This document shows, one piece after another, positions 3,783 through 53,330 of a stretch of DNA of 64,000 bases. The stretch lies in contig CAIMEL010000004.1 of assembly GCA_903840015.1 (NCBI GenBank), positions 30,671-94,670 of the forward strand, read 5' to 3'. Position 1 is the first letter of the stretch. The number at the start of each line of letters is the position of its first letter. The notes under the pieces are model-generated. The model saw only the letters and a program-made list of their open reading frames with translations. It had not been told where the DNA came from and searched no databases. The position numbers and the translations under genes were made by a program. Source of the DNA: an uncultured bacterium. Its GTDB lineage: Bacteria > Patescibacteriota > Dojkabacteria > SC72.

Positions 3783-4541
3783 CTACTGCCTTACAGCCAT
3801 CTTATTATATTCAGCCACATACACACCTAGTTTCATTTTGTCTTTCAGATTCTCTACTGTTACTTCCACATCACTAGTTAGAGGTAGAAGAGTAGGAGTA
3901 TCTGCTGTTCTTACAAGGATATGTAATTTGTCAGTAACCAAACCTGTCATAATTGCTCCAGATCCAATCAATGACTTAATATCTTGAAGTGAGAAATAGC
4001 TAAAACTTGTTAAACCACTACTATCTACATACTTTGGGTGAGTATGCATATTGAAAAGATATTCTACCGATATACTCTTAGGAGCATTCTTGTAATATAT
4101 GTCGACCTGCTTGATGGTCTTACCACTTAAAATTACCTCTTTGCGGTAGTAACCCTGTTTGACAGGGTGTGGAATATATCTAACAGAAATATTTTCATTT
4201 GTTGTTACAGATGATTCATCTCCTTTTACAACAGAAGTTACTATCAATTCACCATCAGCCCAGAATACTGAAATGGCTCTTTCTTTTCCATCACCCAATG
4301 TCAATTTGTGAATATTAATAACATCTTTCCAAAAATCAGAGGGAAAAGATATTGCTTCTGGGAGATTGGAAGGATATGGATACAATTTAGATGATTTCCA
4401 TTGAACCATCTTGTGATGGAAATCAAAGAAAGAGACTGAGTAGATTTTGTTACTAGAGAAGAATTCAGATAGCCAAGAAAACATATTTTTAAAAATCAAA
4501 TTTACTACTAATACTATACAGTAGCATTGACCTTTCTTCAA
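3783..4541 (-). CDS. hypothetical protein (contains HTHP...S..D segment, weak JAB/MPN-like resemblance)
   Basis: 252 aa ORF; N-terminus hydrophobic; no confident family assignment. True start may be downstream (MFSW.. or MVQW..). Confidence 0.4.
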   Translation of the reverse strand: MKKGQCYCIVLVVNLIFKNMFSWLSEFFSSNKIYSVSFFDFHHKMVQWKSSKLYPYPSNLPEAISFPSDFWKDVINIHKLTLGDGKERAISVFWADGELIVTSVVKGDESSVTTNENISVRYIPHPVKQGYYRKEVILSGKTIKQVDIYYKNAPKSISVEYLFNMHTHPKYVDSSGLTSFSYFSLQDIKSLIGSGAIMTGLVTDKLHILVRTADTPTLLPLTSDVEVTVENLKDKMKLGVYVAEYNKMAVRQ

Positions 4542-4569
4542 AACCTAGTAACATATATTAGGGTATTTA

Positions 4570-4722
4570 ACATTAAAGCGTATGGGCAATTAAGGAAATT
4601 GCAACGAGGTGAGAGTTATCGAAATATCAGCGGGTGCTCTCAGGCTATATTGTTAGCCTAAAGATTAATACAAATCTACAAAGATTAATCATCAATCCCT
4701 AACAATCTAAATTCATGCTACA
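4570..4722 (+). ncRNA. glmS ribozyme: glmS ribozyme (glucosamine-6-phosphate-sensing self-cleaving riboswitch) in the glmS 5' leader
   Basis: Immediately upstream of glmS. Core matches the B. subtilis glmS ribozyme: A|AGCG cleavage-site region, P1 hairpin GCAATTAAGGAAATTGC, AACGAGG, GTTATCGAA..T.TC.GCGG.TGC.CTC and GGCTATATTGTTAGCC (P3/P4 counterparts). Confidence 0.8.
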
Positions 4723-4727
4723 CAACT

Positions 4728-6506
4728 ATGTGCGGTATTTTTGGATACATTGGGAAAAGAGATGCGAAAAGAATAATTGTAGAAGGTCTTAAGAGATTAG
4801 AGTACAGAGGATATGATTCTTGGGGTATTGCACTTTTAGAAAAAGGGAAAATACATCAATACAGAGATATTAGCGAAATTAGTACAAACAAGAGGATACT
4901 AGATTTGCCTTGCTCGAATATTGGGATTGGACATACTCGATGGGCAACACATGGAGGAGTTTCAAAGAAGAATGCACATCCACACATATCCCTAACAAAG
5001 GATTTTACTCTAGTACAGAATGGTATTGTTGAGAACTTTGAAGATCTAAAAAAAGATTTAATAGCTAAACACGTCACTATTAAATCTGAAACGGATACGG
5101 AAATCATAGTCAGATTAATTGAAGAAGCAAGAAACAAAGAGAAGAATCTCAAAGAAAGTATCATATCTGTTTTTGAGAGATTAAAAGGGAGAAATACAAT
5201 TGCAGTCTTAGATTCAAAAAATGGGAAAATATATGCCATTAGAAATGGCTCTCCTTTGATACTCGGAATAGGGAAAGAAGAGATTTTCCTTGCGTCAGAT
5301 ACACTTTCCTTCTCTCCATACTGTAAGAATATTGTTGTGGTAGATAACTTAGAGATGGTCGAGATTGAACATAATAGTTTTAAAGTCACGGATTTAACCA
5401 ATTCAAAAGTCAAAAATGTTACTGTTACAAAATTAAAGTACCTGTACGAAGATATCGATAAAGGGGAGTATAAACACTATATGTTGAAGGAAATAGTCGA
5501 GCAATCAAACACCTTTATTAACGCCATAGCATACTCAGAAAAAGATCTTCAATCATTAAGTAAATCCATTAAACAGAGTAGTCGAGTATATATCATAGGC
5601 GCTGGTACAGCAGGGTTTGCTGCTGGTCAAATAGCATATTTCCTTCGAAATATAGGAGGGATAGATGCTCAAGATCTGAGAAGTTATGAATTTGCTAGCT
5701 ATCTACCAATCGTAAAACCAACAGACCTAATCGTAGCTTTATCTCAAAGTGGTGAGACGGCAGACACCATAGAGGCTTTGGAAGAGCTTAAGAAAAAAGG
5801 ATGTAAGATTGCAAGCCTTGTTAATATGTTGGGAACTACAATCAGTAGACTCTCTGACTATCAATTCTTCTCAAATGCAGGACCAGAGATATGTGTAGCT
5901 TCTACTAAGGTTTTCACTTCACAATGTGTATGGGGATATATATTAGCTAAGAACATTGTAGGAGATTTAAAAGGAGGTAAGCGGGAGATTCTCACACTTG
6001 CAAAAGAATTAAAAACTTTCTTCTCTTCTAAAAATCTTAGCAGTATCGACGAGATATCTAAGAAGCTTGTAAAGCAGGAACATATGTTCATTTTAGGAAA
6101 AGGACAAAATTTCAATATCGCACTAGAAGGTTCTTTGAAGATAAAAGAGATTTCCTACAAACATGTAGAAGGATTTGCTGCAGGGGAGTTAAAACATGGT
6201 GTAATAGCTTTAATTGAGAAAGGTACTGTTGTATTTGGAATTCTTTCGAATGATAGAGATAGTAAAGATATATTAAGTGCAATGGAGCAAGTAAAAGCCA
6301 GGGGAGCGTTTACTATCGGAATAGGGGACAAAAAATTCAAGAAAAAGGATGTATTTGATAGATATATTGTTACCCCAGGAAGAGACATAGCTAGTAGTAT
6401 TACAAATGTAATACCATTTCAATTAATCTCCTACTATCTTTCTGTTAGGTTGGGAAATAATATAGATAAACCTAGGAATCTAGCAAAATCTGTTACTGTT
6501 AAATAG
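4728..6506 (+). CDS. glmS: glutamine--fructose-6-phosphate aminotransferase (isomerizing)
   Basis: 592 aa; MCGIFGY N-terminal nucleophile Cys2, GATase-2 domain plus two SIS domains, C-terminal ..KPRNLAKSVTVK. Confidence 0.95.
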   Translation: MCGIFGYIGKRDAKRIIVEGLKRLEYRGYDSWGIALLEKGKIHQYRDISEISTNKRILDLPCSNIGIGHTRWATHGGVSKKNAHPHISLTKDFTLVQNGIVENFEDLKKDLIAKHVTIKSETDTEIIVRLIEEARNKEKNLKESIISVFERLKGRNTIAVLDSKNGKIYAIRNGSPLILGIGKEEIFLASDTLSFSPYCKNIVVVDNLEMVEIEHNSFKVTDLTNSKVKNVTVTKLKYLYEDIDKGEYKHYMLKEIVEQSNTFINAIAYSEKDLQSLSKSIKQSSRVYIIGAGTAGFAAGQIAYFLRNIGGIDAQDLRSYEFASYLPIVKPTDLIVALSQSGETADTIEALEELKKKGCKIASLVNMLGTTISRLSDYQFFSNAGPEICVASTKVFTSQCVWGYILAKNIVGDLKGGKREILTLAKELKTFFSSKNLSSIDEISKKLVKQEHMFILGKGQNFNIALEGSLKIKEISYKHVEGFAAGELKHGVIALIEKGTVVFGILSNDRDSKDILSAMEQVKARGAFTIGIGDKKFKKKDVFDRYIVTPGRDIASSITNVIPFQLISYYLSVRLGNNIDKPRNLAKSVTVK

Positions 6507-7434: not shown

Positions 7435-7512
7435 GGTGGATGTAGCTCAATTGGTTAGAGCATCGGTTTGTGGAACCGAGGGTTGTGGGTTCAAATCCCA
7501 TCTTCCACCCCA
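7435..7512 (+). tRNA. tRNA-His: tRNA-His (anticodon GTG) with genomically encoded G-1 and 3' CCA
   Basis: Cloverleaf: acceptor GTGGATG/CTTCCAC (one U-U mismatch), D arm GCTC..GAGC, anticodon stem TCGGT/ACCGA with loop TTGTGGA (GTG), T arm GTGGG-TTCAAAT-CCCAT. Extra 5' G pairs with discriminator C73; CCA encoded. Confidence 0.85.
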
Positions 7513-20989: not shown

Positions 20990-21025
20990 GGGCGGGCACA
21001 TGCTGGTGTACCCGTTCTTTTTTTT
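20990..21025 (+). terminator. rho-independent terminator (GC-rich hairpin GGGCGGGCAC..GTGTACCCG + 8 T) closing a ~380-nt unannotated plus-strand region
   Basis: Hairpin at ~20992-21014 followed by TTTTTTTT (21018-21025); the T-tract overlaps the stop codon of the convergent ddl gene. Confidence 0.6.
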
Positions 21026-22019
21026 ATGACACTCCCTTACTATTTTCTATTATATAATCAAGAAGATTACTGTAAGTCACACCAATATATTCACACTCCT
21101 TTGGTAATAACGAAGTAGCTGTTAATCCTGGTAAAGTGTTTGTCTCTAAATAGTATATCTTTCCGTCTTTATACAAAAAATCCGATCTTGAATATACTTT
21201 ACAACCCAATTTCCTATGTATATCTCTTGCCAATCTAGAGATATCTGAAGATATCTCTTCTGGAATAGAAATTGGTGGTACAATTTCATTCGCTCCATCT
21301 TCAGTATACTTCGAATCATAATCAAAAAAATCAGATTTCTTTGGTTTAATCTCAATTGGTGGTAAAAGTGTAAACTCTTCATCCACTGATTCCAAAACTC
21401 CACAACTTAATTCAACATTATCTTGGATAGCCTTCTGCACAATGAATTCTGTGTTGAGAGAAAATTCCTTAGAAATAGTCCGCCGTGCAGTTTCAAATTC
21501 TTCATGATTTTTAACAAAGTACAATCCAACACTAGAACCTAATCTATTTGGCTTCAAAACACAAGGGAATTCGACATCATCCATACTCAAATCTTTTGCA
21601 AGAACTAATTTCATTTCGGGAACAACAAGGGAGTCAAATCCAGCAACTATTTTTGAAGACTCATACTTGTTCATACACAATCTACTAGCACCAGAACCAG
21701 AACCTGTAAATCTAACATTATGTTCTTCCAATATCTCTTGCAATTCACCATCCTCCCCAAATTCCCCATGCATAGCTATGAATATCAATGATTCTGCACC
21801 AAGCGAATTAAAAACTTCAGAGAATGGATTTGTACATATTGGACAGAACCTGTAGCTATCCGTCAACGGATCGATAGAATAGTACATTTCCTTGTTGAGA
21901 TAGAGCATATAGATATCATATTTTTCTCTATCTAGATTTTTTACAACATTTCGTGCAGTATTAACTGAAACATCATGCTCAGAAGATGGACCTCCATACA
22001 TTATGTAAACTTTTTGCAT
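21024..22019 (-). CDS. ddl: D-alanine--D-alanine ligase
   Basis: 331 aa; MQKVYIMYGGPSSEHDVS N-terminus and ATP-grasp C-terminal domain typical of Ddl. Confidence 0.85.
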   Translation of the reverse strand: MQKVYIMYGGPSSEHDVSVNTARNVVKNLDREKYDIYMLYLNKEMYYSIDPLTDSYRFCPICTNPFSEVFNSLGAESLIFIAMHGEFGEDGELQEILEEHNVRFTGSGSGASRLCMNKYESSKIVAGFDSLVVPEMKLVLAKDLSMDDVEFPCVLKPNRLGSSVGLYFVKNHEEFETARRTISKEFSLNTEFIVQKAIQDNVELSCGVLESVDEEFTLLPPIEIKPKKSDFFDYDSKYTEDGANEIVPPISIPEEISSDISRLARDIHRKLGCKVYSRSDFLYKDGKIYYLETNTLPGLTATSLLPKECEYIGVTYSNLLDYIIENSKGVS

Positions 22020-22043: not shown

Positions 22044-22871
22044 TTAGAGTCCCTTTGTTAATGCCTTCTTAAATCTCTCCATATCACTATATACATGAAC
22101 CCTAGAGAGATAGAATCTTCTCGAATATCGATGAGTTATTGTCCTACCACATGAGAAACCAAGTAAATAATCATTCTTTTTAATCATTTCAAAAGATCTC
22201 TTGTCTGCAACACATCCAGGATAAGCAATTGAAACTATTTTCTGACCTGTTGTCTTTTCTAATTTCTCTTTGCTATCTACTAATTGAAATTTAAAATTCT
22301 TTGTTCCCTGTAATTTCTTTAAGTCCCTATGTGTACTAGTATGCGAATCAACTATCATTCCATTCTTTACCATCTCTTTTAATTCTGATTTCTTAATTGG
22401 AGATCTATCAGCAATAATGTAAAAAGTAGCAGTCATTTTGTACTTCTTCAAAACCGGATATGCATATTTGTACTGACCTCTACTTCCATCATCAAAAGTT
22501 ATAAGGACAGATTTTTTATGAGGGTTCTTACCACTCTTTAATATGTCATAAAATTCTTGTGGTGTTAAAGTCTTGTATCCATTCTCTTTCAAATACTTCA
22601 TTTGCTTTTCGAACATACTTGGAGAAACAAAAAGTCCCCTGTAATTAACAGAACCAGTACGAGGAACTGGAGCAATATTATGATACATAAGGACAGGAAT
22701 CTTTACTGTAGGTTCTGTATTCTCACCTAAAACATCAGGCTCATTAACTTCCAAATATTCATATGGGGTTGGTGTAAAATGATCTCTAGTTGAGGACCAG
22801 AAAAGGAATCCAAGGTACAGAGGGGTTAGGATAAAGAAAATGGATAATAGAACTTGATATGATTTTCTCAC
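22044..22871 (-). CDS. polysaccharide deacetylase (NodB-homology domain), membrane-anchored
   Basis: 275 aa; N-terminal TM; VLMYHNI, LITFDDG, H.S.TH motifs of NodB-type deacetylases; C-terminus paralogous to that of 45999..47795. Confidence 0.85.
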   Translation of the reverse strand: MRKSYQVLLSIFFILTPLYLGFLFWSSTRDHFTPTPYEYLEVNEPDVLGENTEPTVKIPVLMYHNIAPVPRTGSVNYRGLFVSPSMFEKQMKYLKENGYKTLTPQEFYDILKSGKNPHKKSVLITFDDGSRGQYKYAYPVLKKYKMTATFYIIADRSPIKKSELKEMVKNGMIVDSHTSTHRDLKKLQGTKNFKFQLVDSKEKLEKTTGQKIVSIAYPGCVADKRSFEMIKKNDYLLGFSCGRTITHRYSRRFYLSRVHVYSDMERFKKALTKGL

Positions 22872-33987: not shown

Positions 33988-35067
33988 ATGAAAATAGAGG
34001 AGAATTACTCATTAAAAAATCACAACACCTTCAATGTAGATGTTAAAGCAAAGCTGTATACAGAAGTAAGCTCGGTCATAGATTGTTTGAATATATTAAA
34101 AACATATCCCAAAGAGAAGATATTAGTACTTGGAGATGGAAGTAATACTCTTCTCATAAAGGATTGGGAGGGGATAGTAATAAGACCAATTATAAAAACG
34201 ATTCGTAAAGTAAAAGAAGACGAACAATTCATATACATTGAAAGTGGAAGTGGAACAAATTGGGATCATTTTGTTAGATACTGTGTAGCAAAAAACTATG
34301 CAGGTATTGAAAACCTCGTAATGATTCCAGGAACAGTAGGGGGAGCTGTCGCACAAAACATAGCCGCATATGGTCAGAATATAACGGATACACTTGTTTC
34401 CGTTCGAGCCGTAGATATTAAAAGTAAGAAAAAGGTAATGTTACTACCAGAAGAGTGTGGATATGAATATCGTAGGAGTAATTTTAAAAACAAATGGAGA
34501 TACAGATATATAATAACTTCTGCTGTTTTCAAATTAAGGAAAAATACCAAAGAGTTTGAATTAAGTTACCATGAAAGGGCAGGGCGATATGGATCAATAC
34601 TAGAAGAACTAAACTCTTTTGCGAAAGAACCATACACCATACAAGATGTTATGCAAGCTGTAATAAATCAAAGGGCCAAAAGATTACCATCAGTAGATGA
34701 GTATGGTACCTGTGGCAGTTTTTTTGAGAATCCTGTCGTACCAATAAAGAAATATGAAGAGTTAAGTAAGATGATATCTGAATTACAATGCTATCCTGTT
34801 GAAGATCTTCGGTACCATATAAAAGATTGGGCGGAATATCGCAAAGAAGATTTTGTAAAAATTCCTGCTGGAAGAATACTTGATGAATTGGGATGGAGAG
34901 GGAGATGGATTGGTAATGTTGGAGTAAGCGAGAAGCACGCACTTTGTGTAGTATCGAACAAAGAAGCTACAGGAAAAGAGATTTTGGATTTTGTACATGA
35001 AATGCAAAAAGATGTTAAACTAAAATACGATATAGATTTAATATCCGAAGTTAATATCATTGAGTAA
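33988..35067 (+). CDS. murB: UDP-N-acetylenolpyruvoylglucosamine reductase
   Basis: 359 aa; FAD-binding N-terminal domain (LGDGSNTL, GIENL..IPGTVGGA) and MurB C-terminal domain. Confidence 0.8.
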   Translation: MKIEENYSLKNHNTFNVDVKAKLYTEVSSVIDCLNILKTYPKEKILVLGDGSNTLLIKDWEGIVIRPIIKTIRKVKEDEQFIYIESGSGTNWDHFVRYCVAKNYAGIENLVMIPGTVGGAVAQNIAAYGQNITDTLVSVRAVDIKSKKKVMLLPEECGYEYRRSNFKNKWRYRYIITSAVFKLRKNTKEFELSYHERAGRYGSILEELNSFAKEPYTIQDVMQAVINQRAKRLPSVDEYGTCGSFFENPVVPIKKYEELSKMISELQCYPVEDLRYHIKDWAEYRKEDFVKIPAGRILDELGWRGRWIGNVGVSEKHALCVVSNKEATGKEILDFVHEMQKDVKLKYDIDLISEVNIIE

Positions 35068-38479: not shown

Positions 38480-38536
38480 ATCCTTGACATTCTTTTTGTA
38501 AATGCTACCATATACCCACACCTGAGGTAGGGGTAT

Positions 38537-38938
38537 ATGAAAAACAAACTTCTAACAATTGGAGCTATCGTAGTAAGCATCTTACTCATTGTTGCGGTGA
38601 TAATACTTAAGCAGCAATCTTCGGAAGAAGATGCATCTGGTTTAAAAATATCTCAGAATGTGAGTATCGTAGACGGTACTCAAATCATCGATATTGATGT
38701 CCGAAGTGGTTACTACGCTCCTAGACTCACATATGCAAACAAAGATTTGCCAACAAAACTTAGGATGAACTCTGTTGATTCATACGGATGTGAAAGAGCA
38801 TTCAGAATTCCAAGCTTAAATATTTCTTCAGAATTACCCCCAGATGGTTTAACAGAATTTGAACTTGGCACTCCTACAAAATCCATACTTGGGACATGCA
38901 GTATGGGAATGTATACCTTTTTAATCAAATTCATATGA
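38537..38938 (+). CDS. membrane-anchored cupredoxin-like domain protein (copper-operon associated)
   Basis: 133 aa; N-terminal TM; C-terminal C....C/M pattern (GCERAF...GTCSMGMYTFLIKF) resembling cupredoxin_1-type domains that accompany CopA; stop overlaps copA start (ATGA). Confidence 0.5.
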   Translation: MKNKLLTIGAIVVSILLIVAVIILKQQSSEEDASGLKISQNVSIVDGTQIIDIDVRSGYYAPRLTYANKDLPTKLRMNSVDSYGCERAFRIPSLNISSELPPDGLTEFELGTPTKSILGTCSMGMYTFLIKFI

Positions 38939-41103
38939 GCACAATTAAATACGAAGCAAAAATAGGCGGAATGCATTGTACTGCTTGCGCACTTAATATA
39001 GAGGATCAATTACAAGCGTTGGAAGGGATACAAAAGGTATCTGTAAATTACGCCTCAAGCAAACTGCATTTAGAATATGATGATAGCTTAGTAAATCTCT
39101 CAGATATCAAAAAGAGAGTAGAGCAAACTGGGTATTCCATAGTAGATAAAGATTCTGAAGAAAACAAATCGGAGAAATCAAAGTTAATATTTATACTCCC
39201 CATTTCTTTCGGGCTCTTCTTCCTGATGCTACTAGAACTTCTTTTGGGTCATATTGAAATTATGTATATGGAAGGATTGTTATTCATCTTTTCTACGATT
39301 ACCATGTTTTGGATTGGACAACCCTTTCTAAAAGGCATTTGGCGATTCTTAACAGGGAAAGGTGCAGATATGGACACATTAGTTGGGATTGGGACATTAA
39401 CAGCATATCTTTACAGTACAGTTATACTTTTAATCGAAACTTTACAAATAGAACTACCTCTTGAAAGTGCACTTTACTACGAAGCCCTAATTGTAGTTAT
39501 TGGCTTTGTAATCCTTGGGAAGCATCTTGAAAGTAATTCCCGAAAGAACACAGGCGATGCTATTCAAAGTCTCATAAAATTACAAGCCAAAAGTGCAATA
39601 GTGGAGAGAGACGGGCAAGAGATAGAGATAGCAACAGAAGATATTGCACTGGGGGATATTCTAATCATAAAACCTGGTTCACAGATTCCAACAGATGGAA
39701 TCATTACAGAAGGGGAGGCAGTGATAGATGAATCTATGATTACAGGAGAGTATCTACCTGTGCCTAAGAGCGTAAGTGAAGAAGTCATTGGAGGCACTAT
39801 CAATCAACAAGGATATCTTAAAATACAAGCAACAAAGGTTGGCAGAGAAACAATGCTATATCGGATCATACAACTTGTTGAGGAAGCTCAAAGTTCCAAA
39901 GCTCCAATCCAGAAACTGGTTGACAAAATCTCCCGAGTATTTGTTCCTACAGTTCTGTCACTAGCCGTCCTATCTTTCTTAATATGGGCAATAAGTGGAA
40001 ACATACCATATGGCATTTCATCCTTTGTTGCTACACTCGTTATAGCATGCCCCTGCGCATTAGGATTAGCTACCCCCACAGCAATAATTGTTGGTGTTGG
40101 CAAGGCAGCGAAGTTGGGAATTTTGATAAAAGATGCAGAGAAATTACAGAAACTAAGTTCGGTTTCTTGTGTCGTTTTTGATAAGACAGGAACTCTAACT
40201 TTAGGGAAACCGACAATTTCAGATATCTCCTCGAAAGGAGATGAAAACAAAATGTTACAAATAGCCTATTCATTAGCAAGCAAATCACAACATCCATTAA
40301 GCCTCGCAATTGCAAATGAAGCTGAGCAGAAAAAGCTAACCAAGCTCATGGTACAAGACTTTGTTAATGTTGATGGGAAAGGGCTTACAGGGAAGATTAA
40401 CAAGAAGAGATATTACCTCGGGAGTGAAAACTATATGAAAGACTTGAATATCAAATCGTCTTTTCAGATAAAAAGCAGCAATAGCTCTACAGTAATGTTA
40501 AGTGATGAGCAGGAGGTTCTAGGAGTAATGTATATATCAGATGAATTGAAGAGTGAAGCTCTCATCACAATTAAGAAATTGCAAGATCTTAATATACAGA
40601 CAGTATTACTTTCTGGAGATACGAAGAGAAATGTCGAAGATATTGCTAAGAGATTAAATATTAAGAAAATATATTCAGGGATACTACCAACAGACAAAGC
40701 TAAAATAATCGGAGATCTCAAGAAAACACATAAAGTAGCAATGGTCGGAGATGGAATCAATGATGCCCCTGCATTAGCATTGGCAGATGTAGGGATAGCG
40801 ATGGCAACAGGTACAGAAATTGCAATTAAAACATCAGATATTACACTTCTTGGCGGGAATATCTCCAAGATTCCTTCTGCAATAATACTCTCAAAACAAA
40901 TTATCAAAACAATAAGGGAGAATCTTTTCTGGGCATTCATATACAATACTCTCGGCATTCCAATCGCAATGGGAGTTCTTTTTCCAATATGGGGCATTTT
41001 GTTAAATCCAGCCTTTGCTGGTATTGCAATGTCGTTGAGCAGTATATCTGTGGTGCTTAACTCTCTAAGACTTAAGATTAGTAGAATCTCAGATGAAATC
41101 TAA
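38935..41103 (+). CDS. copA: copper-translocating P1B-type ATPase
   Basis: N-terminal HMA domain GMHCTACA; CPC ion-transduction motif (ACPCALGLATP); DKTGTLT phosphorylation site; GDGINDAP hinge. Start taken at ATG 38935 (MSTIKYEAKIGG), downstream of the ORF-track start 38896. Confidence 0.9.
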   Translation: MSTIKYEAKIGGMHCTACALNIEDQLQALEGIQKVSVNYASSKLHLEYDDSLVNLSDIKKRVEQTGYSIVDKDSEENKSEKSKLIFILPISFGLFFLMLLELLLGHIEIMYMEGLLFIFSTITMFWIGQPFLKGIWRFLTGKGADMDTLVGIGTLTAYLYSTVILLIETLQIELPLESALYYEALIVVIGFVILGKHLESNSRKNTGDAIQSLIKLQAKSAIVERDGQEIEIATEDIALGDILIIKPGSQIPTDGIITEGEAVIDESMITGEYLPVPKSVSEEVIGGTINQQGYLKIQATKVGRETMLYRIIQLVEEAQSSKAPIQKLVDKISRVFVPTVLSLAVLSFLIWAISGNIPYGISSFVATLVIACPCALGLATPTAIIVGVGKAAKLGILIKDAEKLQKLSSVSCVVFDKTGTLTLGKPTISDISSKGDENKMLQIAYSLASKSQHPLSLAIANEAEQKKLTKLMVQDFVNVDGKGLTGKINKKRYYLGSENYMKDLNIKSSFQIKSSNSSTVMLSDEQEVLGVMYISDELKSEALITIKKLQDLNIQTVLLSGDTKRNVEDIAKRLNIKKIYSGILPTDKAKIIGDLKKTHKVAMVGDGINDAPALALADVGIAMATGTEIAIKTSDITLLGGNISKIPSAIILSKQIIKTIRENLFWAFIYNTLGIPIAMGVLFPIWGILLNPAFAGIAMSLSSISVVLNSLRLKISRISDEI

Positions 41104-45998: not shown

Positions 45999-47795
45999 TT
46001 GATATCATTTGTGATTCTTGGATATGCCATCTGCCTCTCTTTGGCCTTAAAAGAAATTGTTTCCTTTCCCGAGTATACCTTTACATTAAACGGAACAGAG
46101 CAAGAGATTACCCTCCCTCATGAGAAATATACCTCCAACGAATTAGAAAGATTTCCATCTAACTACGATGAAGTTATACAAATAAATAATCTCTCCGTAG
46201 ATCAAAGAAATCGAATTGAGTTACTAAGATTTGGTAAAAGTGAGATAGATGAGAAAGGTTTGGACTATGCTTTCCTTTTAAAAAAATCCACACCTCTCTT
46301 ACTAACCTCCCAAATGTTACAGCTATATGTAGAGTATGAAATGATACATAGCAAGGAAAGGATAATAGAAAGTAACCTAATTTCGCAGTTGGGAAGTACA
46401 CTTACAAAGTTAAACATATACATTAATATTCTAGACAAATTACCACTATTCCCAAATCAAAAAATGAACGAAATCAAAAATACTTTGAAAGAATCCCTTC
46501 AGCTCCTGCAAAATAAAAAGTATGTTGATACTATTGCTTCACTTAACTCACTCCCAGATTCTATTACTAAGAATATTTCTAAATTTCTTTTCAAATTTAA
46601 ACTCAATGATGAGATAGAAGAGATAAATCAGATACATGCTGTTCTTGGACTACCTCAATTATTTACAAAACAAGATCTTGTAGAATCTAATTCTGAATAT
46701 ATCTTTTCCTTAGAGGGAAATTCTTGGGAAGAGTTACCTACCATATATGTAGAGAATGATACAGAATTCTACAATAATGTAGTTCCATATCTAAAATACA
46801 AAACTGAGATACTCTCACAACTTAATATCTCAAATGAAGATACATATACAACCCTTAAAGATATCTTAACTATTGAAGAGAAATCTAGTGGCATAACTGT
46901 AGAGCCTAATAAATTGGAGCAGACATATCGACGGATTCTCACAGTACTAAGCAAATTAGACTATCCTAGTACTCAAAGATTAACAACCCTTATCAAGACA
47001 ATAGAAAATAATGAGAAGAGGATTCTTACTGTTTCTCCATATATAAACAATTTAGAAGAGGAAATCGAAATAGAGGATGCAAATTTTGATCAAGATCTTG
47101 GTATTCAAGAAATTACACAACCAAAAGGTACTGTTCGTATACCCGTATTAATGTATCATCAAATTGCAGTAGCGCCAAAAGGGAGCAGTAAATTTGTTAA
47201 AGGGCTATATGTCTCTCCTGATGATTTTGAAGAACAGATAGCATATCTAACTAGAAACAATATAAAGACGCTGTCTTCCAAGGAATTCGCTGAGCTCCTA
47301 GCTACAGGAAAAAATCCCAAACAAAAAAGTGTCATGTTAACATTTGATGATGGACATCCGACCCATTATGCAGCAGCATACCCCATACTTAAGCGATATG
47401 GGCAAACAGGAGTATTTTTTGTGGTTTCTTCTAGAACTTCACTGTCATCTAATCAACTTAGAGAAATGGCACAGAACGGAATGAGTATTGATTCTCATTC
47501 TGCAACACATCCAAATTTGCAAAAAACAGATGAGTTAACGAAACTGTATTCAGAAATAGCAGGAAGTAAAGCTGCCTTACAAGCCAGAACAGGGAAAAGA
47601 GTCTATGCCATAGCTTACCCTGGTTGCGTCGCCGACACCGAGACCTATTCAGTAGTAGCCAACAGTGGATATAGTTTAGGATTCTCCTGTGGAAGAAAGA
47701 TTGATCATTACCCTTCGAACTCTCTATCTATCTCACGTGTACATGTTTTCACTGAGATGGAAAGATTCCTCAAGGCATTAGCAGGAAAACTTTAA
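45999..47795 (+). CDS. polysaccharide deacetylase (NodB-homology) with long N-terminal helical extracellular region
   Basis: 598 aa; N-terminal TM, ~370-aa repeat-poor region, C-terminal NodB domain (VLMYHQI, MLTFDDGH, DSHSATH). C-terminal 60 aa paralogous to 22044..22871. Confidence 0.8.
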   Translation: MISFVILGYAICLSLALKEIVSFPEYTFTLNGTEQEITLPHEKYTSNELERFPSNYDEVIQINNLSVDQRNRIELLRFGKSEIDEKGLDYAFLLKKSTPLLLTSQMLQLYVEYEMIHSKERIIESNLISQLGSTLTKLNIYINILDKLPLFPNQKMNEIKNTLKESLQLLQNKKYVDTIASLNSLPDSITKNISKFLFKFKLNDEIEEINQIHAVLGLPQLFTKQDLVESNSEYIFSLEGNSWEELPTIYVENDTEFYNNVVPYLKYKTEILSQLNISNEDTYTTLKDILTIEEKSSGITVEPNKLEQTYRRILTVLSKLDYPSTQRLTTLIKTIENNEKRILTVSPYINNLEEEIEIEDANFDQDLGIQEITQPKGTVRIPVLMYHQIAVAPKGSSKFVKGLYVSPDDFEEQIAYLTRNNIKTLSSKEFAELLATGKNPKQKSVMLTFDDGHPTHYAAAYPILKRYGQTGVFFVVSSRTSLSSNQLREMAQNGMSIDSHSATHPNLQKTDELTKLYSEIAGSKAALQARTGKRVYAIAYPGCVADTETYSVVANSGYSLGFSCGRKIDHYPSNSLSISRVHVFTEMERFLKALAGKL

Positions 47796-49906: not shown

Positions 49907-51379
49907 GTGATGCAAAAAGAATATCTTTTTCTTGGTGATGATAGTGTAAATAATGGCAGATATATGCTTGCGGTATATAGAATTATTCCTGCCGATGGAT
50001 TGACCTTAGAAGATGTTGCAACTGAGGTTGCTGCAGAATCTTCTACAGGAACAAGTATAAAGGTTGGTTCTGCAACAGAGTTTTCTCTCAGTAATAATGC
50101 AAAGGTCTACAAGATAGATGAAGAAAAAAATCTCGTATGGATTGCTTACCCATGGGAGATTTTCGATACAGGAGGTAACATACAAAATATTCTAACCTAT
50201 GTTGCAGGTAATATTTTAGGAGTAAGCGAAGTTAAAGCATGCAAACTACTTGATGTTCACTTTCCTCCAGAGATGCTAGTTAGATACGATGGACCAAGCT
50301 ATACCATCGACGATATGAGAGCATACTTAAATGTTTGGGATTCTCCAATACTAGGTTCCATCATAAAACCAAAGATTGGTTTAACTCCTGCGCAGTATGC
50401 TGAACTAGCATACGATTTCTGGGTAGGTGGAGGACACTTTGTGAAGAATGATGAACCTCAATCCGATCAATCTTTCTGTAACTATGAATTAATGGTCAAA
50501 TCAATTAGGATTGCTATGGACAGAGCAGAACAGGAAACAGGTCATACTAAAGTACATTCCTTTAACGTTTCAGCAGCTGATTTTGACACCATGCTCCACA
50601 GAGCAGACTTTGTAGCTGCAAATATGAAGCCTGGAAGCTATGCATATTTAATAGATGGTATAACTGCTGGTTGGATGGCGGTACAAACACTAAGAAGAAG
50701 ATATCCAAATACATTCATACATTTCCACAGAGCAGGACACGGCGCATACACAAGAATGGAAAACCCAATAGGGTACACAGTTGAAACTCTTACAAAATTT
50801 GCCCGTCTAGCAGGTGCCTCTGGTATACATACAGGTACTGCAGGTGTTGGGAAAATGTCAGGAGACTCTAGGACAGATATAACGGCAGCTCATCATGGAC
50901 TAAGATTAAAATCATCTGGAGAATTTTTCGATCAGGCTTGGAGTAAAATCTCTGAGAAAGATGCAGATATTGCCAGTATGATTCAGAAAGAGGAAGAGAA
51001 ATGGGATGGAGATTGTAGAGGATTCTTGGAAGAGAGAGTAGCGAAGAAGGCTGAATTCACATACAAATCTGATACTTCAAGAGTCATACTAAAAACTGCA
51101 CCAATTATTTCAGGTGGCCTAAACCCAACACTCTTAGACGACTTCCTCAATGTTATGGGCACAATTGATTTCATAACTACAATGGGAGCAGGAGTACACT
51201 CACATCCAATGGGAACCAAGGCAGGTGCGAAGGCAGTATTACAAGCATACGAAGCATGGAAGAAGGGTGTTACTATCCAAGAGTATTCGAAAGATTTCCA
51301 GGAATTAGCTATTGCTATAGATTTCTTTGAGAAAAACAAAACCAATACACACAAACTAAAAGGTTACGAACAGGTTTAG
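49907..51379 (+). CDS. rbcL: ribulose-1,5-bisphosphate carboxylase/oxygenase large-subunit homolog (form II/III or III type)
   Basis: 490 aa; RuBisCO active-site motifs KPKIGL, GGHFVKNDE (carbamylated Lys region), HFHRAGHG, GGL..; no small-subunit gene adjacent. Confidence 0.9.
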   Translation: MMQKEYLFLGDDSVNNGRYMLAVYRIIPADGLTLEDVATEVAAESSTGTSIKVGSATEFSLSNNAKVYKIDEEKNLVWIAYPWEIFDTGGNIQNILTYVAGNILGVSEVKACKLLDVHFPPEMLVRYDGPSYTIDDMRAYLNVWDSPILGSIIKPKIGLTPAQYAELAYDFWVGGGHFVKNDEPQSDQSFCNYELMVKSIRIAMDRAEQETGHTKVHSFNVSAADFDTMLHRADFVAANMKPGSYAYLIDGITAGWMAVQTLRRRYPNTFIHFHRAGHGAYTRMENPIGYTVETLTKFARLAGASGIHTGTAGVGKMSGDSRTDITAAHHGLRLKSSGEFFDQAWSKISEKDADIASMIQKEEEKWDGDCRGFLEERVAKKAEFTYKSDTSRVILKTAPIISGGLNPTLLDDFLNVMGTIDFITTMGAGVHSHPMGTKAGAKAVLQAYEAWKKGVTIQEYSKDFQELAIAIDFFEKNKTNTHKLKGYEQV

Positions 51380-51434: not shown

Positions 51435-53330
51435 ATGTCTAATTCCCAAGTAGAACAACAAAACTTAAGAAATATCGCCATTATTGCCCATGTTGACCAC
51501 GGTAAAACAACCTTGGTTGATGCTTTCATGAAACAGACCAATCTTTTCAGAGAGAATCAAGATGAAATGAATCAAGAAAGAATTCTTGATGTTGGAGAAT
51601 TAGAGAAAGAGAAAGGAATCACTATTAATGCGAAGAATATCTCCATAAGGTACAAGGGTGTAAAGATAAATATCATAGATACTCCCGGACACGCTGATTT
51701 TGGTGGAGAAGTTGAAAGAACTTTAAATATGGCGGATAGCTGTTTGCTTCTAGTGGATGCAAAAGAAGGAACAATGCCACAAACAAAGTTTGTTCTCAAA
51801 AAGGCTTTGGAGCTAGGCTTAAAACCAGTTGTAGTAGTAAACAAAATAGACAAAAAATTAGCAAATATTAAGAAAACCATATCAAAGATTCAAGATCTTT
51901 TCTTAGCACTTGCAACAGACACCTCTCAATTAGACTTCCCTATATTCTATGGAATCTCACGAGAAGGGAAAATATGGAAAGAAATACCACAAGGTGATCT
52001 AACTATACCTAACAGTACAGAGGGAGATCTTCTCCCAATACTTGATGAAATAGTAGAGAACTTGCCATCTCCGAAGGGAGATCCGAATGGACCATTCCAA
52101 ATGCAAATAACATCGGTGGAATACAATGAACATCTTGGGAGATATCTCATCGGAAAAATCTCACGCGGAACTTTAAAAGTAGATGATCCAATCATCTTAC
52201 TTTCAGAGAAAGAAGGATTTGAAAAGAAACAGGGTAGAGTAAGGGAAATTTTCTTGAAAGAAGGACTTCAGTGGGAGAAACAAAATTCAGCTAGTGTTGG
52301 TGAAATAATTGCTCTTACAGGTATAGATTCTACAGATATCGGAGCAACAATATGTGGATTAGAGAACCCTGAAGCATTACCTGAGATCAAAATTACACCT
52401 CCTTCAGTTAGAGTAAAGTTTTCTGCTAACACATCACCATTTGTTGGGAAGGAAGGTAAGTTAGTTACTGCAAAGCAATTACAACAAAGATTGGAACAAG
52501 AAAAAAATTTGAATATTAGTCTTAAAATTACAAATACAGGTAGTAACAATTATTATGTCTCAGGAAGGGGAGAGCTTCAACTTGCGATATTGATTGAGCA
52601 ATTACGCAGAGAGGGATATGAGTTTGAACTTGGTAAACCAGAGGTTATTCTACAGGAAAGAGAAGGGAAAAGGTGTGAACCATTAGAAGAGCTTACTATT
52701 GATGCTCCAGATGAATATATGAGCACTATCACACAAGAAGTTAACGAAAGAAAAGGTAAACTGATTAATATTGAAACGGAGGAAGGACAAACAAGATTTA
52801 CTTTCAATATACTTACCAGAAATCTCATAGGTCTTCATCGAGTATTAATGAATGCTACAAAAGGGACAGCAATTATAAATAGCTTCATTGTCGACTATAT
52901 TCCTTACGAGAAAAGTGATGAGCTTTTCCGAAAAGGAGTAATAATATCATCTGAGACAGGTACTGCCCTAGCATACTCATTAATGAGCATACAAGACAGA
53001 GGAAGACTATTTATTGAAGGATCCACTGCTGTATATGAAGGAATGATAATTGGAATTAATAATCATGAGAGTGACTTAGAGGTTAATCCTTGTAAAGCAA
53101 GACACAAAACGAATGTGAGGATGTCACATGCCGAAGTAACTGAGATTGCCCTTAAGGCACCAATACAGCTAACCATAGAATATGCTCTTTCTTTCATCAG
53201 AAGTGATGAATTGATTGAGGTTACACCTAAGAATGTCAGACTAAGAAAGAAGCTTTTAACAGCAACACAGAGGACTTGGTCAAAGAGAAAAAATCTGACA
53301 GAGTACGCAAAGGAACACTTGGAGGGATAA
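51435..53330 (+). CDS. typA: translational GTPase TypA/BipA
   Basis: 631 aa; G-domain AHVDHGKTTLVD, DTPGHADF, NKID; EF-G-like domains and BipA C-terminal domain. Confidence 0.9.
   Translation: MSNSQVEQQNLRNIAIIAHVDHGKTTLVDAFMKQTNLFRENQDEMNQERILDVGELEKEKGITINAKNISIRYKGVKINIIDTPGHADFGGEVERTLNMADSCLLLVDAKEGTMPQTKFVLKKALELGLKPVVVVNKIDKKLANIKKTISKIQDLFLALATDTSQLDFPIFYGISREGKIWKEIPQGDLTIPNSTEGDLLPILDEIVENLPSPKGDPNGPFQMQITSVEYNEHLGRYLIGKISRGTLKVDDPIILLSEKEGFEKKQGRVREIFLKEGLQWEKQNSASVGEIIALTGIDSTDIGATICGLENPEALPEIKITPPSVRVKFSANTSPFVGKEGKLVTAKQLQQRLEQEKNLNISLKITNTGSNNYYVSGRGELQLAILIEQLRREGYEFELGKPEVILQEREGKRCEPLEELTIDAPDEYMSTITQEVNERKGKLINIETEEGQTRFTFNILTRNLIGLHRVLMNATKGTAIINSFIVDYIPYEKSDELFRKGVIISSETGTALAYSLMSIQDRGRLFIEGSTAVYEGMIIGINNHESDLEVNPCKARHKTNVRMSHAEVTEIALKAPIQLTIEYALSFIRSDELIEVTPKNVRLRKKLLTATQRTWSKRKNLTEYAKEHLEG

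Follow-up and report, generated by a model that had tools for sequence, protein, structure and literature searches.

Background

The canonical glmS ribozymes (Rfam family RF00234), such as those of Bacillus subtilis, Bacillus anthracis and Thermoanaerobacter tengcongensis, lie in the 5' untranslated region (UTR) of glmS. A GNRA-type loop L4, carried on P4.1 and docking on P1, is typical of the consensus and dispensable for catalysis. McCown, Roth and Breaker (RNA, 2011) reportedly described rare structural variants in Deinococcus-Thermus, with stems added within the core and a remodelled periphery around a core that was kept, and are said to have predicted that more would be found; their survey reportedly predates the genomes of the candidate phyla radiation (CPR). 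In B. subtilis the P4 domain is clamped at one end by the P3 pseudoknot and at the other by docking of L4 on P1, and the residues in these contacts are intolerant of substitution (PMC11602151). The 66-nucleotide core of the T. tengcongensis ribozyme (P1 to P2.2) is catalytically competent, and its P2.2 tolerates a bulge shifted toward the helix centre (PMC7125110). Here we analyse a 64,000-nucleotide stretch of DNA from an uncultured bacterium (contig CAIMEL010000004.1; this whole stretch is called the window, and all positions are counted in it), for which an earlier note had proposed a glmS ribozyme in the leader of glmS. We conclude that the element comes from a bacterium of the Dojkabacteria, a CPR lineage, and is very probably a functional glmS ribozyme-riboswitch, placed in the 5' UTR of the glmS mRNA. 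A full-text search of the literature found no work linking glmS ribozymes to the CPR, Patescibacteria or WS6.

The Dojkabacteria form shares with the canonical family its site in the glmS 5' UTR, the A|GCG context of cleavage, the core of P1, P2, P2.1 and P2.2 with invariant ACGAGG, UCG and GCGG, the P3/P3.1 pseudoknot, P4, and the A-rich IL4 strands (ACAAA...ACAAAG). It differs in having no P4.1 or L4, IL4 forming a 14-nucleotide terminal loop instead; in a short P1 (6 base pairs and a 5-nucleotide loop); in a J1/2 that falls one nucleotide short of the uGACGAGG of the Rfam consensus; in P2.2, which has an A53-U6 pair and its bulge at position 4 or 5 rather than 6; in a candidate helix between leader and tail, which we call P0; and in its host, a CPR bacterium rather than a Firmicute, whose genes mostly have no Shine-Dalgarno sequence. 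Among the features typical of the family for which we tested, only P4.1/L4 was not found. The Deinococcus-Thermus variants, as they have reportedly been described (the comparison is of descriptions and not of sequences), are a precedent for glmS ribozymes outside the Firmicutes with altered core-supporting substructures, whereas the form described here is a reduction and belongs to a different phylum. Engineered minimal cores are laboratory truncations without P3 to P4; the Dojkabacteria form, in contrast, is natural, is conserved across its clade and keeps P3, P3.1, P4 and IL4.

Results and discussion

Identity of the element and of its host

We scanned the whole window against all 4227 Rfam families, obtaining five matches at gathering score, four of them tRNAs and the fifth RF00234. 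The RF00234 match (4566-4700, + strand) scores 60.6 bits, well above the gathering score of 37 (E = 1.7e-11), and its covariance-model alignment is complete, covering positions 1-167 of the 167 in the model. It ends 28 nucleotides before the glmS ATG, on the same strand; the 186-nucleotide gap before glmS (4542-4727) is free of open reading frames (ORFs), as the earlier note had it, and the downstream ORF passes both protein models for this transaminase (Table 1). The same layout, with the ribozyme upstream of glmS, recurs in all related loci. The results of the analysis itself are that the element belongs to the family, that it stands in front of glmS, that the core helices can form, that helices covary and that the element is conserved throughout the clade.

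The earlier note had left it as an 'if' whether the genome is CPR-like; TypA and GlmS indicate that it is. The named homologues of the TypA encoded at 51435-53330, at 72-87% identity, all belong to Candidatus Dojkabacteria or candidate division WS6 (near-identical copies, at 99-100%, occur in public assemblies), and the best named GlmS homologue, at 67% identity, is from Candidatus Dojkabacteria, which stands among the bacterial candidate phyla in the NCBI taxonomy. The GC content is 32-36%.

Table 1. Positions in the window of the ribozyme helices, the predicted promoter and cleavage site, and glmS
Feature	Position	Strand	Basis or remark
Predicted sigma-70-type promoter	4527..4554	+	-35 TTGACC 4527-4532, 16-nucleotide spacer, -10 TAACAT 4549-4554 (consensus scan)
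AGGG, candidate P0 5' strand and predicted mRNA start	4560..4563	+	GGG in 38/39 distinct anchored rows
Predicted self-cleavage site	A(-1) 4577 / G(+1) 4578	+	aligned to A|GCG of the RF00234 consensus
P2.2 5' strand CGUAUG	4579..4584	+	pairs with CAGCG 4628-4632, A4582 bulged
P1 hairpin GCAAUU-AAGGA-AAUUGC	4586..4602 (4586-4591 / 4597-4602)	+	covariance-model alignment
J1/2 and P2.1 5' strand AACGAGG	4603..4609	+	ACGAGG invariant
P2 GAGAG/CUCUC	4611-4615 / 4637-4641	+	loop carries P2.1 UCG 4619-4621 and P2.2 CAGCG 4628-4632
P3 hairpin GGCUA-UAUUGU-UAGCC	4643..4658 (4643-4647 / 4654-4658)	+	loop AUUG 4649-4652 is the P3.1 5' strand
P4 GAUUAAU/AUUAAUC	4663-4669 / 4684-4690	+	14-nucleotide loop ACAAAUCUACAAAG (4670-4683)
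P3.1 3' strand CAAU	4693..4696	+	pseudoknot with 4649-4652 (A4649-G4652 with C4693-U4696)
CCCU, candidate P0 3' strand	4697..4700	+	abuts P3.1; CCC invariant
glmS coding sequence	4728..6506	+	glutamine--fructose-6-phosphate transaminase, 592 amino acids; NF001484 607.9 bits, TIGR01135 583 bits, both above cutoffs

Conservation among relatives

Eleven loci of the clade were obtained through their GlmS homologues, with no RNA pattern involved (the leader of L083 is identical to that of L082). In all 10 distinct loci of this set that we scanned, RF00234 was matched at 38.9-60.3 bits, with the same compact shape and with UCAGCGG and AGCG(UA|GC)UGGG throughout. The element is kept even though GlmS identity among these relatives is as low as 56-67%. 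Metagenome contigs scanned with a sequence pattern gave 78 loci, made up of about 60 compact ribozymes, 4 full-size ones (L097, L119, L142 and L158) and about 10 GC-rich chance matches. Eleven diverse compact representatives scored 49-70 bits on RF00234, so routine Rfam annotation would detect the clade. The element is not universal in the CPR, since neither the Peribacteria (L002) nor the Levyibacteriota (L005) glmS locus has an RF00234 match at gathering score; the Roizmanbacteria locus (L004), with 121 nucleotides upstream of the gene, is uninformative.

Three observations on individual relatives are recorded here. In L132 (metagenome contig Ga0076324_102) the ribozyme is cut after the 5' strand of P4 and fused directly to the glmS start codon (...GATTAATCAATGTGTGGGG), which reflects a deletion in nature or else a fault of assembly. 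Two metagenome-assembled genomes titled 'uncultured Candidatus Saccharibacteria' (L001 and L003) encode GlmS proteins 56-64% identical to that of the window and carry the same compact ribozyme; they may be mislabelled relatives from the Dojkabacteria. A tRNA with anticodon GUG lies 3' of glmS in the window (7436-7509, + strand) and also in L003, L082, L085, L086 and L088, after zero to two small genes, which makes it a conserved synteny.

Covariation of the helices was counted on a gap-free alignment of 56 sequences (39 distinct rows), built from fixed-length segments cut at anchors chosen blind to pairing. A raw MAFFT alignment of the 56 leaders was dropped for structure counts because its GGG, P1, P4 and tail columns were misaligned. 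Over all counted helices, 92.1% of cells are paired in the 39 distinct rows, compared with 80.7% in shuffles, and cells with changes on both sides number 116, compared with 35; none of 500 shuffles reached the observed values, and slid controls were at most 48% paired. Compensatory changes are many in P1, P2 and P3 by this formal count, and those of P3.1 and P4 were read from per-sequence tables. In P1 the outer pairs are 95.5% paired, two of the four changing on both sides (CG in 23 and UA in 16 rows at one pair; AU in 29, CG in 6, UA in 3 and UG in 1 at another); every cell of P2 is paired, with both-side changes at four of its five pairs; and P3 is 94.9% paired, with such changes at three of five.

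The core

The pairing scheme in Table 1 combines the covariance-model alignment with the crystallography-derived pairings of PMC7125110 and PMC11602151. The core elements listed in the earlier note all stand where it had placed them. On the scheme the double pseudoknot of P2.1 and P2.2 can form, the partners of both helices being present; with the RF00234 score above its threshold as well, neither outcome by which the note would have had the finding refuted has come about. The note's cleavage mark (A|AGCG) lay one nucleotide too far 5', the predicted scissile bond being A4577|G4578 (AAA|GCG), and its extent to 4722 was too long, since the functional RNA stops at about 4696, where P3.1 ends, or, should P0 exist, at 4700. 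The residues A-1, G1 and C2 and the motifs ACGAGG, UCG and GCGG are invariant in all 56 relatives, and these are the active-site and cofactor-pocket residues of the published structures (PMC7125110). P2.1, in this family the helix that makes up the active site and cofactor pocket, could form the pairs C4605-G4621, G4606-C4620 and A4607-U4619; the six nucleotides hardly vary or do not vary at all among the relatives, with no covariation, and the pairing is shown as possible.

P2.2 departs from the consensus. Its five predicted pairs (C4579-G4632, G4580-C4631, U4581.G4630, U4583-A4629 and G4584-C4628) enclose one bulge, position 53 being A where the consensus has G and position 6 being U, and the bulge falls at 4 or 5 where the consensus bulge is at 6. 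Across the clade, positions 4 and 5 read only GC (29 sequences), UA (14) or AC (13), so that in every case one of them, and never both, is able to pair with G54; the 3' strand shows no variation, in part as a consequence of the search pattern. The 5-53 pair of P2.2 is poorly conserved in the family, and variants in which the bulge lies nearer the helix centre keep far more activity than mismatched variants (PMC7125110). As read from the aligned sequences, the natural arrangement of U6-A53, G7-C52 and a bulge at 4 or 5 is of this experimentally tolerated type.

About half of the compact clade, for the most part members with GGGUAU or GGGAUA leaders, have AAGGA (4592-4596 in the window), AAAGG or UAGGAA in the loop of P1, and the motif is absent from the remaining members. 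It might make a tertiary contact, or pair with the CCCU tail as an alternative to the leader.

The periphery and the loss of P4.1

The earlier note had given GGCTATATTGTTAGCC (4643-4658) for P3 and P4 together; the segment is present and is P3 alone, its loop carrying the 5' strand of P3.1. Nor is the 'duplicated AAAGATTAAT' (4660-4669 and 4680-4689) a duplication: it consists of both P4 strands, each with the A-rich junction beside it, 4660-4669 being J3/4 with the 5' strand of P4 and the region 4680-4689 the 3' strand of IL4 with the 3' strand of P4. Their likeness comes from ATTAAT, which reads the same on both strands. The P4 strands covary among relatives (GAGAGAUU/AAUCUCUC, GGUUAAAA/UUUUAACC and UAGGAUAU/AUAUCCUA). 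For P3.1 the covarying types are AUUG/CAAU, ACUG/CAGU, GCUG/CAGC, AUAUGC/GCAUAU, AUUACU/AGUAAU, AUGUAU/AUACAU and AGUAU/AUACU, and the case for the helix rests on these explicit types, because the comparison of longest matches with own and with foreign partners (4.8 versus 3.8 nucleotides) is a weak test among related AU-rich sequences.

The peripheral 3' domain had been recognised in the earlier note, which overlooked the loss of P4.1. The window and all aligned members of the clade lack eighteen consensus positions, those of P4.1 and the L4 tetraloop, and the loop of P4 consists of the IL4 strands ACAAAU and ACAAAG fused through CU. This loop has 14 nucleotides in 33 of 54 parsed relatives; P4 and P3.1 were parsed automatically with a limit on loop length, which left 3 of the 56 (L088, L111 and L129) unparsed. 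P4.1 is kept in the full-size relatives L097, L119 and L158. On the predicted structure, the tetraloop-receptor clamp between L4 and P1 is impossible in the compact form.

The promoter and a candidate closing helix

The predicted promoter upstream of the ribozyme (Table 1) has counterparts at the equivalent place in related loci, with TTGAC(C) and a (TG)TAAYAT or TATAAT box, and transcription is predicted from it to start at about A4560/G4561. From the end of the -10 hexamer to the conserved GGG the distance is 6-8 nucleotides in 53 of 56 relatives; a fixed spacing was considered and rejected on account of this variation. We looked for an intrinsic terminator in the leader and found none, which leaves transcription attenuation unsupported.

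The GGG at the predicted start of the mRNA (4561-4563) probably pairs with the CCC (4697-4699) that follows P3.1, in a helix, P0, within which the ribozyme would be enclosed and which would stack on P3.1. Both minimum free energy and centroid folds of 4560-4702 contain P0 (4560-4563 with 4697-4700) alongside P1 to P4. The nucleotides flanking the GGG and the CCC shift in step (GGGAA with UUCCC, GGGUA with UACCC, GGGUG with CACCC), giving AU, UA and UG at one flanking pair and AU, UA and GC at the other, and all four GGGG leaders have a CCCC tail. Of 43 distinct combinations, 31 have as many nucleotides between P3.1 and the CCC as they have inward P0 pairs; permutations agreed in 11.3 on average, and 31 was reached in none of 10,000. 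With spacer and inward pairs equal in number, P0 would adjoin P3.1 without a gap. The full-size glmS ribozymes L097 (1807-1985) and L119 (2515-2685), from another uncultured lineage, score 73 bits, and their leaders (AAGGAG and GGGAGU) are complementary to the ACUCCUU that directly follows P3.1 (GGAG with CUCC), an arrangement that resembles P0. In each of the two, a large insertion with an inverted repeat (GTCATTCTGAACGTAGTGAAGAATC ... TTCGCTAATCACTCAGGATGAC) separates the ribozyme from the ATG of glmS.

Several results speak against P0. The formal count is modest, at 80.8% of cells paired compared with 76.8% in shuffles, and two to three of 500 shuffles reach the observed value; a control slid by -1 has a covariation score of 0.121, compared with 0.114 for the structure itself; independent covariation events are few; and relatedness alone can yield such numbers without any structure. 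Unanchored duplex energies with own and with foreign tails (-8.5 versus -8.4 kcal/mol) are uninformative in AT-rich sequence, and we used anchored pair counts in place of unanchored duplex folding.

The other explanation, to which we give a smaller though substantial share of belief, is that GGG and CCC are unpaired. The GGG would then be kept as the nucleotides with which transcription begins (GTP-sensitive initiation is one possibility), and the CCC would have a separate role, perhaps in a tertiary contact or as a protein or ribosome standby site. The position of the GGG at the predicted start, just past the -10 box, suits this explanation, as do the modest statistics for P0 taken alone. The first pair beside GGG/CCC is moreover impossible in about a third of the 39 distinct sequences (outward in 15, inward in 11), and the class with UAU leaders, to which the window belongs, has no inward extension and a single outward A-U pair (A4560-U4700). 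Against unpaired ends stand the concerted changes of the flanks and the agreement of spacer and pair number, far more frequent than in permutations; the other promoter-like sites in the window, none of which is followed by GGG; and the complementarity of leader and tail in L097 and L119, which uses a different sequence. These observations lead us to prefer the P0 helix. That P0, as a closing helix not described before, locks the 5' end of the ribozyme to its 3' boundary in Dojkabacteria and in one or more further uncultured lineages (that of L097 and L119), that in the compact clade it takes over from the L4-P1 clamp the task of holding the periphery against the core, and that it makes the triphosphate end part of a protective terminal stem, is a more tentative proposal, and one we think doubtful enough to hold apart from the helix itself.

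Proposed mechanism and functional alternatives

The leader would fold into the double-pseudoknot core of P1, P2, P2.1 and P2.2, braced by P3, P3.1 and the P4 hairpin, with the IL4 purines of the P4 loop docking on P2.1. Glucosamine-6-phosphate (GlcN6P), the product of GlmS, would bind as cofactor when it accumulates, whereupon the RNA would cleave itself at A4577|G4578 and release its triphosphorylated 5' end; the coding part, left with a 5'-OH, would be degraded, and GlmS synthesis would drop, closing a negative feedback. In Bacillus, RNase J1 degrades the 3' fragment, which begins with a 5'-OH (PMC5473149, PMC10810187), and it is from this established behaviour of the family that we infer GlcN6P dependence, the position of cleavage and decay of the 3' fragment, the decay step in Dojkabacteria being drawn by analogy. 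Two features of the genome bear on the scheme. The window encodes Ddl and MurB, from which we take it that peptidoglycan is made and GlcN6P needed. Weak Shine-Dalgarno-like motifs (AGGA, AAGG or GGA at -22 to -4) precede only 5 of 30 large ORFs, with none before glmS, and given this scarcity self-cleavage of the mRNA suits the genome better than masking of a ribosome-binding site. Many relatives have CUACAC about 5-10 nucleotides before the glmS AUG.

Some findings count against a functional ribozyme of the familiar kind. The core departs from the consensus at C4C5 (UA), at G53 (A) and at 4634, where G replaces the lower-case a of CGGaUG, which is A68 in B. subtilis; the substitution A68U slows the B. 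subtilis ribozyme (PMC11602151). Activity or affinity for GlcN6P could differ from that of the B. subtilis ribozyme in an RNA without P4.1 and L4. The single-sequence fold has a z-score of only -1.79, and neither RNase J nor another 5'-end-dependent nuclease was found among the window's ORFs of at least 250 amino acids and a few smaller ones near glmS.

Such departures could mean a derived RNA with changed behaviour, which might cleave constitutively, respond to another amino-sugar phosphate or serve as a structured 5' stabiliser. The loss of P4.1/L4, the shortened J1/2 and the non-consensus positions 4, 5 and 53 would be in keeping with such a change, and a few active-site mutations suffice to abolish the GlcN6P requirement (earlier work cited by PMC11602151). 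We nevertheless consider it improbable, since the active-site and cofactor-pocket residues are invariant in all 56 relatives, the element always stands upstream of glmS in the layout expected for feedback, and the altered P2.2, with five pairs and one bulge, is a configuration shown to be active (PMC7125110). A decaying relic, similar to the ribozyme and without function, might be expected in a small, AT-rich CPR genome with reduced regulatory content and would agree with the weak fold z-score, yet it is hardly credible for an element with an invariant core inside an otherwise AT-rich intergenic region, conserved with compensatory changes in P1, P2, P3, P3.1 and P4 between loci whose GlmS proteins have diverged this far. 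A working glmS ribozyme-riboswitch accounts best for these data.

Other features of the window

Some further genes and sites of the window were noted. A RuBisCO homologue of 490 amino acids (49907-51379, + strand) matches NF010002 (PRK13475) at 528.7 bits, above the cutoff of 489. CPR bacteria carry form II/III-type RuBisCO used in nucleotide salvage, and the homologue fits a CPR genome. Scattered cell-wall genes at 21024-22019 (-), 33988-35067 (+), 22044-22871 (-) and 45999-47795 (+), which encode D-Ala-D-Ala ligase, MurB and two proteins with polysaccharide deacetylase domains, fit a need for precursors derived from GlcN6P. At 38484-38536 (+) a promoter-like TTGACA...TACCAT is followed immediately by the inverted repeat ATACCCACACCTGAGGTAGGGGTAT, about 360 nucleotides upstream of a gene for a CopA-type copper P-type ATPase (38896-41103); judged by its sequence, the repeat looks like the operator of a metal repressor.

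Conclusion

The element extends a family already known and is not a new kind of RNA, and a routine scan with Rfam finds it; given the scores, WS6 sequences are likely to be in Rfam's own full match list for RF00234 already. What is new here, namely the compact periphery throughout a clade, the shifted P2.2, the candidate P0 and a new host at the level of a phylum, modestly widens the range of hosts and of shapes in which the family is known. If P0 locks the two ends of the ribozyme together as tentatively proposed, self-cleavage would strip the terminal stem and the triphosphate in one step, which, we speculate, would sharpen the difference in stability between cleaved and intact mRNA, and the compact form would be a natural minimal design that couples ribozyme folding, ligand sensing and protection of the 5' end.

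Apart from P0, the finding places a well-studied metabolite-dependent ribozyme in the CPR. With the loss of P4.1 and L4, kept clade-wide, nature supplies a minimal periphery that can be set beside the Bacillus and Thermoanaerobacter models, and the natural shift of the P2.2 bulge mirrors rearrangements so far known only from mutational scans. The element is not surprising in kind, and should be useful to researchers concerned with ribozyme folding and with the distribution of riboswitches.

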